Below are positions 3,370-6,341 of a stretch of 64,000 nucleotides of DNA, in pieces (within the stretch, counting starts at the first letter, position 1; the number at the start of each line of letters is the position of its first letter). The stretch is from Escherichia coli O157:H7 (GTDB lineage: Bacteria; Pseudomonadota; Gammaproteobacteria; Enterobacterales; Enterobacteriaceae): NCBI RefSeq assembly GCF_013167455.1, contig NZ_CP038328.1; one strand, given 5' to 3'. Position numbers and translations under genes: made by a program. The notes under the pieces are model-generated. The model worked only from the letters and a program-made list of their open reading frames with translations. It searched no databases and was not told the DNA's origin.

Positions 3370-4101
3370 ATGGCTGAATTACTGTTAGGCGTCAACATTG
3401 ACCATATCGCTACGCTGCGCAACGCGCGCGGTACCGCTTACCCGGATCCGGTGCAGGCCGCGTTTATTGCCGAGCAGGCGGGGGCGGACGGCATTACCGT
3501 GCATTTACGTGAAGATCGCCGCCACATTACTGACCGCGATGTGCGCATCCTGCGTCAGACGCTGGATACCCGCATGAATCTGGAGATGGCGGTGACCGAA
3601 GAGATGCTGGCGATCGCGGTTGAGACGAAGCCGCATTTTTGCTGCCTGGTACCAGAAAAGCGTCAGGAAGTAACAACCGAAGGCGGCCTGGACGTTGCAG
3701 GGCAGCGTGACAAAATGCGCGATGCCTGCAAACGTCTGGCGGATGCCGGGATTCAGGTTTCTCTGTTTATCGACGCCGATGAAGAGCAGATCAAAGCTGC
3801 GGCAGAGGTTGGCGCACCGTTTATCGAGATCCACACCGGTTGCTATGCTGATGCCAAAACTGACGCCGAACAGGCGCAAGAGCTGGCGCGTATCGCCAAA
3901 GCCGCGACCTTTGCCGCTAGTCTCGGTTTGAAAGTTAACGCCGGACACGGTCTGACCTATCACAACGTAAAAGCCATTGCCGCCATCCCTGAGATGCACG
4001 AACTGAATATCGGTCATGCCATTATTGGTCGTGCAGTGATGACCGGACTGAAAGATGCGGTGGCAGAAATGAAGCGCCTGATGCTGGAAGCGCGTGGCTA
4101 A
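3370..4101 (+). CDS. pdxJ: Pyridoxine 5'-phosphate synthase
   Basis: 243-aa product from the internal ATG ([21 protein letters not shown]); the longest ORF starts at 3355. Confidence 0.93.
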
Positions 4102-4481
4102 TGGCAATATTAGGTTTAGGCACGGATATCGTAGAGATCGCTCGCATAGAAGCAGTGATCGCCCGATCCGGTGAGCGCCTGGCACGCCGCGTATTAAGCG
4201 ATAACGAATGGGAAATTTGGAAAACGCACCACCAGCCGGTGCGTTTTCTGGCGAAACGCTTTGCCGTAAAAGAAGCCGCAGCAAAAGCGTTTGGCACCGG
4301 GATCCGCAATGGTCTGGCGTTTAATCAGTTTGAAGTATTTAACGATGAGCTTGGTAAGCCACGGCTGCGACTGTGGGGCGAGGCATTAAAACTGGCGGAA
4401 AAGCTGGGCGTTGCAAATATGCATGTGACGCTGGCCGATGAGCGCCACTATGCTTGTGCCACGGTAATTATTGAAAGTTAA
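4101..4481 (+). CDS. acpS: Holo-[acyl-carrier-protein] synthase
   Basis: 126-aa ORF whose start overlaps the pdxJ stop by 1 nt; sequence recognised as AcpS. Confidence 0.95.
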
Positions 4482-4504
4482 AAATAATACCGTTCTCTTT
4501 ATAA

Positions 4505-4580
4505 AGTAAAACCCCCGAACTGGTAAGGAACGGGGGTTTTACTTTTTAACTTTAATTTTGTGCAGCACACGATTCCAACG
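4505..4580 (-). ncRNA. ohsC: Candidate OhsC antitoxin sRNA, divergent from shoB
   Basis: Minus-strand CATAAT -10 element at 4587-4592; the transcript would contain the 19-nt element at 4560-4578 and end at the 4508-4547 terminator; known shoB/ohsC layout. Confidence 0.45.
4508..4547. terminator. Bidirectional rho-independent terminator (AAAACCCCCG / CGGGGGTTTT with T-runs on both sides)
   Basis: Perfect 10-bp stem read in the sequence; serves acpS on + and the candidate ohsC transcript on -. Confidence 0.7.
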
Positions 4581-4902
4581 AAAATGATTATGGATCAATT
4601 TCGTTGACCTGTACAAGCAACTTGCAATCTCTGACATAAAAAACGCGAGCCTTTACGAAGAAATCGACATTGATGAAAAGATTAACGTGACCGCTTTTTG
4701 ATAAGTACATTAAAATCGGTTTCGTTATTGGCAATTTTGCTGTGCTTTACACCATGCCACTGAATTCCCCCATTGAAACGAGTGGTGTCGTCAAAGCTCT
4801 GGTGTGGAGTGCAGCACTCGATTCCAATAACTCGCACGTTCAGTTTTGGGGAGATGTAAGGGCTAATCTGAACGGCTGCATTCCTTGTTTAAGGAAAAAC
4901 GA

Positions 4903-4983
4903 ATGACTGATTGCCGATACCTGATTAAACGGGTCATCAAAATCATCATTGCTGTTTTACAGCTGATCCTTCTGTTCTTATAA
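4903..4983 (+). CDS. shoB: Type I toxin ShoB (26-aa hydrophobic peptide MTDCRYLIKRVIKIIIAVLQLILLFL)
   Basis: ORF below the 60-aa track cutoff, read by hand; AAGGA Shine-Dalgarno 7 nt upstream; peptide recognised as ShoB; lies between acpS and yfhL as in K-12. Confidence 0.8.
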   Translation: MTDCRYLIKRVIKIIIAVLQLILLFL

Positions 4984-5005
4984 CACAAGGAAACGTACTT
5001 AAGGT

Positions 5006-5035
5006 GCGTCCGGTGAACCAATCGGACGCGCCTTT
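5006..5035 (+). terminator. Hairpin after shoB (GCGTCCG / CGGACGC)
   Basis: 7-bp inverted repeat 23 nt after the shoB stop. Confidence 0.45.
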
Positions 5036-5176
5036 AATAACTATAAATAAGTGTCTGGGCAGATACTATATAAATTAACTTAGTGAATTATTATGCTAAT
5101 GTCATCAATTAAATAAATATAATGGCGTTAAGGCTTCCCAGTAAAATAATTAATACTCTACTTCCAGAGTAGAATA

Positions 5177-5473
<297 letters not shown>

Positions 5474-5492
5474 TTATACGCGCATTCTTTAC

Positions 5493-6341
5493 TCAGACCA
5501 GTTTTTTCACCAGCGCTTCACTATGACGAATACGTTCTGGTGCCAGTTCCAGATCCTGCTGAATCAGCGCAATGAACAGCAAATCCGTTAACATTCCCTG
5601 CGCGTGACAAGCAGAGATTGAAGCACTGTTTGTCGCTTGTTCTTCGGCAATGGTATACAGGCAATGAGAAGCACGCTGTTGCAGGGCATTGGGAGTAAAG
5701 CCGGTAATCGCCAGCACTTTTCCGCCCACTCGCAGCATCTCATCTGCCGCCAGGTTTAACTCGCGTCGTACACCGGTGTAAGAAATGGCTAATAACAGAT
5801 CGTCAGGGGACGACGCCTGTACGGTAGCGAGTAGCGCATGCATATCGCGCACTGCGGCAGCATTGAAGCCAATCTTCATCAGCTTCCAGGCAAAGTTTTG
5901 CGCCACCAGACCCGAAGCGCCAATACCGGTCAGAATTATCCGCCGCGCAGAGCGCAACATTGTTACGCATTCATGCAGTTTCTCTTCACTATTAACGTTT
6001 AGCGTTGCGTACATAGCGGCAGTATTTTCTTTAATCAGTTTTTCGCCGACCAGCCGTAACGGATCATCACCGCGGATTTGGTTATGAATGGGCACTGAGG
6101 GCGATTCCGGCTGGCTTGCCAGCGCTTCACTCAACGCCAACTTAAGCGCCGGAAAACCTTTATAGCCGAGTTTTTGCGCGAACTTCACGACGCTGGACTG
6201 ACTGACTCCGGCTTCGTTGGCCAGTTGCTGAGAGCTTAAATGGCGCGCCGTATCAGGTTGTAGCAGCAGATAATCCGCCAGTTTTTTATCACTCTGGGCA
6301 AGCCCCTGGTAACGCTGACGGATACGAAGTAAGCCGTTCAT
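5493..6341 (-). CDS. yfhH: RpiR/SIS-family transcriptional regulator
   Basis: 282-aa product from the internal ATG with an AGGAAAG Shine-Dalgarno; N-terminal HTH and C-terminal SIS-like region. Confidence 0.88.
   Translation of the reverse strand: MNGLLRIRQRYQGLAQSDKKLADYLLLQPDTARHLSSQQLANEAGVSQSSVVKFAQKLGYKGFPALKLALSEALASQPESPSVPIHNQIRGDDPLRLVGEKLIKENTAAMYATLNVNSEEKLHECVTMLRSARRIILTGIGASGLVAQNFAWKLMKIGFNAAAVRDMHALLATVQASSPDDLLLAISYTGVRRELNLAADEMLRVGGKVLAITGFTPNALQQRASHCLYTIAEEQATNSASISACHAQGMLTDLLFIALIQQDLELAPERIRHSEALVKKLV

Follow-up and report, generated by a model that had tools for sequence, protein, structure and literature searches.

The shoB/ohsC type I toxin-antitoxin locus of Escherichia coli O157:H7, its direct repeat, and two putative co-adapted versions of the RNA-pairing core

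The window analysed here, a stretch of 64,000 nucleotides from Escherichia coli O157:H7, carries in the spacer between acpS and yfhL two small genes, one for a hydrophobic peptide and the other for a short RNA on the opposite strand (Table 1). The gene order read from the ORF list and the annotation, pdxJ-acpS-ohsC(-)-shoB(+)-yfhL(-)-yfhH(-), is that of E. coli K-12, with ohsC and shoB divergent and non-overlapping. An initial annotation of this DNA had proposed a 26-residue hydrophobic ORF with a good Shine-Dalgarno sequence in the acpS-yfhL spacer, and such an ORF does occupy 4903-4983, with AAGGAA at 4891-4896, 6 nt 5′ of its ATG; in the ORF list it is contained as the ATG-internal part of a TTG-start ORF at 4885-4983. 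The peptide is identical to the product of K-12 b4687 and to WP_000128776.1. Profile searches of Pfam and NCBIfam with the 26 residues returned no family at E <= 1, apparently since so short a protein has no usable HMM, and because no model in either collection matches the peptide, its assignment to ShoB rests on exact sequence identity.

Table 1. Features of the shoB/ohsC locus and its surroundings, in window coordinates.
Feature	Position	Strand	Description
pdxJ	ends 4101		gene order within 4000-5600
acpS	4101-4481	+	flanks the spacer
acpS-yfhL spacer	695 nt		houses ohsC and shoB
Near-palindromic hairpin	4499-4549	.	inverted repeat I1, 19-nt arms, 95% complementary
ohsC gene	4501-4579	-	OhsC antitoxin sRNA, 77-79 nt; 5′ end G4579, 3′ end past the terminator hairpin
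OhsC pairing element, repeat copy 1	4560-4578	-	GTGCAGCACACGATTCCAA; OhsC nt 2-20, read as UUGGAAUCGUGUGCUGCAC
ohsC promoter	4587-4616	-	-35 TTGTAC 4616-4611, -10 CATAAT 4592-4587; 7 nt to +1 at 4579; promoter scan
shoB promoter	4687-4716	+	-35 GTGACC 4687-4692, -10 TAAAAT 4711-4716; promoter scan
shoB primary transcript	4724-5040	+	~317 nt, 179-nt 5′ UTR; +1 inferred at G4724
5′ clamp arm, shoB mRNA nt 1-31	4724-4754	+	predicted pairing with nt 77-108; MFE and consensus folds
OhsC target, repeat copy 2	4809-4827	+	GTGCAGCACTCGATTCCAA; shoB mRNA nt 86-104, ends 75 nt 5′ of the start codon
Anti-SD/SD hairpin	4881-4896	+	UUCCUU 4881-4886 (nt 158-163) with AAGGAA 4891-4896 (nt 168-173)
shoB CDS	4903-4983	+	26-residue hydrophobic toxin plus stop, ATG 4903 to TAA 4983; product MTDCRYLIKRVIKIIIAVLQLILLFL
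shoB 3′ stem-loop, terminator-like	5001-5034	+	inverted repeat I2 and folds, then UUUAAUAA
yfhL	5177-5437	-	then yfhH (-)

That a shoB/ohsC type I toxin-antitoxin locus lies here, as the initial annotation had claimed, is borne out by three independent records: RefSeq/PGAP describes the 81-nt CDS, in an O157:H7 genome matching at 100%, as ‘type I toxin-antitoxin system toxin ShoB’ (WP_000128776.1), the annotation of K-12 MG1655 places shoB (b4687) and the ncRNA ohsC (b4608) in the same spacer and the same arrangement, and the Rfam family RF02495 matches the minus strand. To judge from the sequence, the ORF at 4903-4983 and the minus-strand RNA at 4501-4579 are almost certainly the shoB/ohsC pair of E. 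coli. The pair has been on record since 2005-2008, and its recovery here is the correct rediscovery of a known and annotated locus, one that demonstrates that a 26-codon gene and an unannotated sRNA are recoverable from raw sequence with almost exact coordinates. For the full explanation developed below, which joins the shoB/ohsC identity, OhsC pairing, a 5′ clamp with a standby site and a pairing core in two versions, our rough probability is 0.9. The segment 4400-5200 is 100% identical to the corresponding region of many E. coli O157:H7 chromosomes in a complete-genome search, and 5,425 out of the 5,426 complete E. coli genomes contain it, in every case on the chromosome; homologues of ShoB are mainly limited to E. 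coli and Shigella (PMC2887945).

The Rfam model ohsC_RNA (RF02495) aligns along its whole length (model positions 1-77 of 77) with 4503-4579 of the minus strand, at an E-value of 5.7e-17 and a score of 101.3 bits where the gathering score is 50, while K-12 ohsC (b4608, 2700520-2700598) transfers by pairwise alignment to 4501-4579; the initial annotation, in placing a minus-strand OhsC over 4505-4580, had thus been essentially exact. The RNA folds with a 15-bp terminator stem (z = -4.1), and the hairpin at 4499-4549, as its sequence suggests, can act as a terminator for acpS on the plus strand and for ohsC on the minus strand. Because this hairpin is nearly palindromic, a second, sub-threshold ohsC_RNA match of 34.9 bits appears on the plus strand, an artefact that has also been described by others (PMC11264685). 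Thr_leader, His_leader and other Rfam families that hit the ohsC terminator were rejected, as all of these matches fall below their gathering scores and are due to the hairpin and its U-run. A terminator scan of 4400-5200 found nothing, because the loops or tails of both hairpins fall outside the scan rules, and the terminators of shoB and ohsC were assigned instead from inverted repeats and folds. In the consensus fold of the shoB 3′ stem-loop, pairs 282:307, 286:303, 290:299 and 291:298 vary on one side only. OhsC is an RNA that has been detected experimentally in K-12 (PMC5668327), and a literature search for its expression in O157:H7 yielded a reference-list mention only.

The two promoters are divergent and about 145 nt apart. 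The hexamers of the shoB promoter are identical to those in a published survey, where they are conserved at 99.9% and 99.6% (PMC11264685), and in 2,212 E. coli assemblies the ohsC -10 hexamer CATAAT is found in 100%, the -35 hexamer TTGTAC being a minority variant at 33.1% (PMC11264685). The start of the shoB transcript is put at G4724 because the start regions of shoB and ohsC are inverted copies of one another (-10 hexamer, 7 nt, GTT; inverted repeat I6), and the resulting RNA of about 317 nt agrees with the published full-length form of ~320 nt (PMC5397157). Besides this form, a 5′-processed one of ~280 nt exists, and only the latter is translated (PMC5397157, PMC5668327): with a translational fusion, beta-galactosidase activity was obtained from the processed form only (PMC5397157). 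As summarised in PMC5668327 and PMC5397157, overproduction of ShoB depolarises the membrane, and for the K-12 allele the same two papers, citing Fozo et al. 2008, describe its overproduction as toxic and this toxicity as abolished by expression of OhsC. The functional experiments cited here concern the K-12 allele throughout, the exception being ohsC of strain EDL933, which was cloned as a chimera scaffold (PMC3919570). Both shoB and ohsC are said to be regulated by CpxR, and two CpxR boxes are predicted in the shoB-ohsC region (PMC9600279, PMC11264685).

What connects the two genes is a 19-nt element at 4560-4578 that, exactly as first noticed in the initial annotation, recurs with one mismatch at 4809-4827; it has only these two matches with three or fewer mismatches on both strands of the 64 kb, against a chance expectation of 0.01, and none of 100 dinucleotide shuffles reached two matches. 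The copies differ once, at position 10 (A versus T). Because the repeat in the DNA is direct and the genes are transcribed divergently, the two RNAs are complementary, the reasoning by which an antisense partner had originally been proposed being sound, and 18 of the 19 RNA positions pair. In the predicted duplex, 9 bp flank a U.U mismatch on either side, with a dG of -30.8 kcal/mol. A 19-nt complementarity between the OhsC 5′ end and the shoB 5′ UTR has been published (PMC3919570), and we consider it near-certain from the sequence that OhsC would pair with the shoB 5′ UTR at 4809-4827. A third ‘copy’, 68% identical, at 4742-4760 overlaps the clamp arm discussed below and was not accepted as a member of the repeat, since, being in direct orientation, it is unable to pair with the target.

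A sceptic might put the repeat down to chance or to a relic duplication and take the minus-strand ‘RNA’ for the acpS terminator read in reverse, with no antitoxin present; the near-palindromic terminator does, after all, give the weak plus-strand ohsC match of 34.9 bits as well. Yet the 101-bit match is full-length, includes the non-palindromic 5′ half of the RNA and occurs on the minus strand only, a conserved ohsC promoter stands at the right distance, the repeat is far above chance and its copies have undergone compensatory evolution, and OhsC has been detected experimentally in K-12 (PMC5668327). This explanation is effectively refuted.

The O157:H7 locus shares with K-12 shoB/ohsC (b4687/b4608; also ryfB/ryfC) its position in the spacer, the divergent layout, the identical 26-residue ShoB, the OhsC terminator and nearly the whole shoB 5′ UTR, and the 19-nt element is placed alike in both RNAs. 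The promoter hexamers are the same too, except for the ohsC -35, which is TTGTAC in the window and TTGTAA in K-12. The pairing element, in contrast, differs between the two strains at seven of its 19 positions in both copies, and so do three bases of the shoB mRNA (nt 8-10). K-12 has GTGCAGCATGCACCCTCAA in both the ohsC-side and the shoB-side copy (type A), which gives a perfect 19-bp duplex of -38.0 kcal/mol, whereas the window has GTGCAGCACACGATTCCAA on the ohsC side and GTGCAGCACTCGATTCCAA on the shoB side (type B), with 18 of 19 positions paired, the central U.U and the weaker duplex given above. In the alignment of the two strains, both copies have changed at the same seven positions (9, 10 and 12-16) and have acquired the same new base at six of them, a coincidence whose joint probability by chance is, in a rough calculation, ~1e-7. 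The shoB-side copy is embedded in otherwise almost invariant sequence, and 10 of the 14 differences between the K-12 and O157 mRNAs fall within the 28 nt of clamp and target, out of 317 nt (P = 2e-8).

Neither version is rare. Type B was found at the ohsC site in 1,696 and at the shoB site in 1,694 of the 5,426 complete genomes (~31%), and type A accounts for most of the remaining ones (~68%), with 3,664 records that matched at 90-95% identity. Sampling was extended to 73 metagenome contigs, retrieved through the OhsC terminator, and to four representatives of Escherichia species, retrieved with a 22-mer of the shoB UTR; the scan of the genome collection with this 22-mer yielded four Escherichia loci, and its two matches in Chitinophaga and Peptoclostridium were dismissed as chance on account of their unrelated context. 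The E. albertii locus, where the ohsC side is absent, was left out of the comparison of OhsC with shoB. Among the ~70 metagenome loci in which both patches are readable no A/B recombinant occurred, all being A/A-like or B/B. Minor discrepancies between the two copies at positions 9, 11 and 13 always have C on the ohsC side and T on the shoB side, which corresponds to a wobble pair between G of OhsC and U of shoB, and locus L006 has C at position 9 in both copies. The sole discrepancy that is not a wobble is the U.U of type B, present in 30 of 30 type-B metagenome loci and in all type-B genomes inspected.

The predicted duplex energies follow the same division. Variants of type A range from -35.6 to -37.6 kcal/mol, close to the -38.0 kcal/mol of the cognate duplex, and the cross-type combinations are weak, at -16.6 kcal/mol for OhsC-A with shoB-B and -18.4 kcal/mol for OhsC-B with shoB-A; the U.U mismatch costs about 7 kcal/mol. 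These comparisons suggest that the specificity of pairing is determined by 8 core nt within the 19-nt element, a core of which E. coli would have two co-adapted versions, the window carrying version B, and that the single mismatch of type B is a fixed feature of one of two putatively co-adapted alleles, not noise. We lean, by a small margin, towards the view that these amount to two mutually non-cross-reacting specificity classes of shoB/ohsC, which would have arisen by a concerted replacement at seven positions in both RNAs, accompanied by matching changes at mRNA nt 8 and 10. The variable patch would then be a two-allele lock and key rather than noise, and the comparison provides what the 2024 E. 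coli survey had left open, a check of pairing potential. The central U.U of type B may, for its part, tune repression or cleavage by RNase III.

Parallel changes in two repeat copies could also be produced by short-tract gene conversion, with no selection for pairing. The copies are only 249 nt apart and do recombine, given that at least 16 genomes have a single-copy deletion junction, and the seven changed positions form one contiguous block. On the other hand, the core is flanked by just 8 nt and 3 nt of homology, and the A/T difference at position 10, which is stably kept, would be erased by conversion. Nor does conversion account for the co-variation of nt 8 and 10 in the shoB mRNA, outside the repeat, or for the fact that all tolerated discrepancies but one are in the G.U-compatible direction. 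As a substitute for selection, conversion is improbable in our estimation; the two could nevertheless act together, conversion being the means and selection the filter.

The changes at the 5′ end of the mRNA acquire a meaning in the predicted structure of the transcript. The 317-nt shoB mRNA folds with -115.4 kcal/mol (z = -6.8 relative to shuffles), and the MFE fold as well as the consensus of 23 haplotypes joins nt 1-8 to nt 101-108 and nt 15-31 to nt 77-93. Because the 5′ end of the mRNA is paired in this way with nt 77-93 and 101-108, the OhsC target at nt 86-104 is predicted to be buried. Variation within the first 26 nt is confined to nt 8-10, which face the variable core of the target: type B has G-C at clamp pair 8:101 and A-U at pair 10:100, whereas type A has A-U or G.U at the former and G-C at the latter. 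Counted over the 23 haplotypes, 8:101 is GU in nine, AU in eight and GC in six, and 10:100 is GC in 17 and AU in six, a covariation that represents essentially one A/B lineage split, with changes on both sides in one pair only and with a structure derived from the same sequences. Constraint folding puts the cost of opening the OhsC target at 19.9 kcal/mol in the full-length O157 mRNA and at 7.3 kcal/mol once the 5′ 40 nt are removed, the corresponding values for K-12 being 16.1 and 6.9 kcal/mol. This prediction fits the published inactivity of the 320-nt form, and on the strength of the folds a cis-acting clamp that is freed by 5′ processing is, in our judgement, probable.

The ribosome-binding site behaves differently in the models. 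The six pairs of the anti-SD/SD hairpin are invariant in nearly all of the 23 haplotypes, the shoB AUG pairs with codons further inside the ORF in the MFE and consensus folds, and the energy needed to open the ribosome-binding site is 7.5-10 kcal/mol at every 5′ truncation; the truncated mRNA has no dominant fold, the frequency of its MFE structure being 0.0002. In silico, shoB would accordingly resemble mRNAs of the standby class, with a ribosome-binding site predicted to be closed regardless of processing and a target predicted to be first occluded and then exposed. That the freed site is a standby or loading site blocked by OhsC, with cleavage by RNase III as a second layer, is a further step, to which we would give even odds on these models.

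Two systems studied by experiment have the same outline. In zorO/orzO of E. coli O157:H7, as in shoB/ohsC, a divergent sRNA pairs through its 5′-terminal 18-19 nt far 5′ of a sequestered ribosome-binding site (PMC3919570, PMC5397157), the 5′ UTR has a similar length of ~175-180 nt, and 5′ processing exposes the target of the sRNA (the ‘EAP’ region) and thereby activates translation (PMC5397157), a course of events that the in-silico picture of shoB matches. The zorO toxin differs in having 29 residues and lies at another locus, no sequence similarity being claimed, and the evidence for its mechanism comes from probing, in vitro translation and rnc mutants, whereas that of shoB is predicted. 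Similarly, tisB/istR-1 has a divergent sRNA, pairing by the sRNA 5′ end, a closed ribosome-binding site, and an inactive primary along with an active 5′-processed transcript (PMC7708055); the tisB target is located ~100 nt 5′ of the closed ribosome-binding site (PMC7708055), and IstR-1 competes with standby ribosomes and induces cleavage by RNase III (Darfeuille et al. 2007; PMC7708055). The toxin families differ, and tisB is under LexA/SOS control in place of the CpxR control reported for shoB/ohsC (PMC9600279, PMC11264685). A standby site together with a pseudoknot has been demonstrated experimentally for tisB only, the standby site of shoB being a predicted one.

Sequence and annotation show a sigma-70 promoter for the ~317-nt shoB mRNA on the plus strand, with the 26-codon ORF for the membrane-depolarising ShoB, and a divergent promoter on the minus strand for the 77-79-nt OhsC, whose nt 2-20 are complementary to nt 86-104 of shoB. 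In the primary transcript the first ~31 nt would fold onto nt 77-108 and bury the OhsC target, and the Shine-Dalgarno sequence and the AUG would be held in separate local helices. Loss of ~40 nt from the 5′ end would open the upstream site and leave the ribosome-binding site closed. By analogy with tisB and zorO, the opened site would most likely be a ribosome standby or loading site, and OhsC, by occupying it, would block translation and mark the duplex for RNase III.

Alternatively, OhsC might act chiefly by forming a substrate for RNase III and so lead to destruction of the shoB mRNA; where the target lies, in a standby site or elsewhere, would then not matter for translation. RNase III cleavage sites have in fact been mapped in vivo inside the putative shoB/OhsC duplex region of MG1655 (PMC6212723), and decay that is triggered by OrzO and dependent on RNase III is documented for the zorO analogue (PMC5397157). 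Repression of zorO and tisB nevertheless persists without RNase III, the sRNA also blocking the standby site (PMC5397157), and the predicted layout of shoB, with its sequestered ribosome-binding site, its target ~75 nt further 5′ and its 5′ clamp, matches that of zorO and tisB. The U.U mismatch, moreover, would weaken a 19-bp substrate of RNase III, and yet it is fixed in ~1,700 genomes. Decay as the main function of OhsC strikes us as rather unlikely; RNase III decay and the blocking of a standby site are not mutually exclusive.

A different way for an upstream target to control shoB would be translational coupling of the kind known from hok/mok, in which OhsC would block a leader ORF, running from GTG 4742 to TGA 4904-4906, whose stop overlaps the shoB start (ATGA). 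In 23 of 23 haplotypes no stop codon interrupts the leader frame between the mRNA 5′ end and the ATGA overlap, and this frame includes the OhsC target. An open frame of 60 codons has, however, a chance expectation of ~5%, neither GTG 4742 nor ATG 4754 is preceded by a Shine-Dalgarno sequence, the leader start sits within the predicted clamp helix, and most substitutions in the leader alter the encoded residue (M>I, P>S, L>Q, W>R, K>T/N, CTL>LDS), with no sign of constraint at the protein level. We think coupling through a leader peptide very improbable.

If there are two such specificity classes, the shoB target would be under a triple constraint, having to match OhsC, to match the 5′ clamp and to retain the presumed standby function, and the natural variation between types A and B would constitute compensatory-mutation evidence for the predicted clamp/standby model, giving to a 5′ clamp of the tisB/zorO kind in shoB support from covariation with concrete coordinates. 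What is added here to a well-understood class of systems is modestly new and comprises the two putatively co-adapted alleles, the fixed U.U, the covariation of the clamp and deletions mediated by the repeat. Deletions of the latter kind were scored from matches in which the junction aligned over 66 of 66 positions, and on this basis the DNA between the repeats is missing from at least 16 complete genomes, their junction being a single copy of the element. The repeat is thus also a recurrent deletion site and, as both promoters are removed together, it provides a safe way of losing the module.

A deletion across the locus's own pairing element is visible in E. coli SK6988, where the junction (locus L084, positions 560-660, equivalent to window 4560-4827) consists of one copy of the 19-nt element and joins the left flank of ohsC to the right flank of shoB. 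The 248 nt that lie between the repeats are missing, and with them the 5' end of OhsC, the promoters of both genes and the predicted 5' clamp of shoB, the first 31 nt of the mRNA. The same 66-nt junction is matched perfectly by SK6988 and at least 15 other complete genomes, which include enterotoxigenic (ETEC) O6:H16 strains and the mouse strain M8, among others, and the shoB site is matched partially, and no more than that, in about 54 genomes. A separate deletion occurs in the metagenome contig QZLQ01000519.1 (locus L033), in the region equivalent to window ~4755-5010, and removes the shoB mRNA from about nt 31 through its terminator but retains ohsC and both promoters intact, leaving an antitoxin-only locus of a kind mentioned in PMC11264685. 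An IS1-like element was also observed inside the stretch matching window 4400-5200 in E. coli strain 1613 (NZ_CP082835.1 3442326-3443902, match H1).

Within the pairing patch, the single mismatch of the repeat (window 4569 and 4818) becomes a U.U in the OhsC/shoB RNA duplex, which is fixed in every locus read of type B, the form of the patch found in the window. No repair at shoB U95 was seen among these type-B loci, and mending that position carries no obvious structural cost; in type-B OhsC, a small 5' hairpin includes a base pair between the mismatch U and A19.

An inverted repeat links the start region of ohsC with that of shoB, and the two share a common layout (a -10 element, 7 nt, then G+1 TT); it is from this mirroring of the ohsC start region that the +1 of shoB is deduced. 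The repeat suggests that the two divergent promoters arose by inverted duplication. The ohsC -35 differs by allele, reading TTGTAC in type B (window 4610-4616), whereas K-12, of type A, has TTGTAA, and according to PMC11264685 this hexamer shares sequence with CB2, the second of the proposed CpxR sites; the reported CpxR control of ohsC may therefore differ in type-B strains.

Features of the ohsC/shoB start regions and of the shoB leader
Feature	Window position	Strand	Size	Remarks
Inverted repeat of ohsC and shoB start regions	4577-4589 and 4714-4726		13 nt	85%
Open frame upstream of shoB	4742-4906	+	54 codons	GTG start; TGA overlaps shoB ATG (ATGA)

The leader frame, which encloses the OhsC target, has no stop between the shoB mRNA 5' end and the TGA that closes it, and is open in all 23 shoB haplotypes. 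It is nonetheless probably not coding, judging from its lack of a Shine-Dalgarno sequence and from substitutions that are mostly non-synonymous. In shoB itself, A4966C (Ile22Leu, giving LQLLLLFL) occurs together with the synonymous C4972T in codon 24 in 17 of 30 type-B metagenome loci; codon 22 is Ile in the window and in other O157 genomes.
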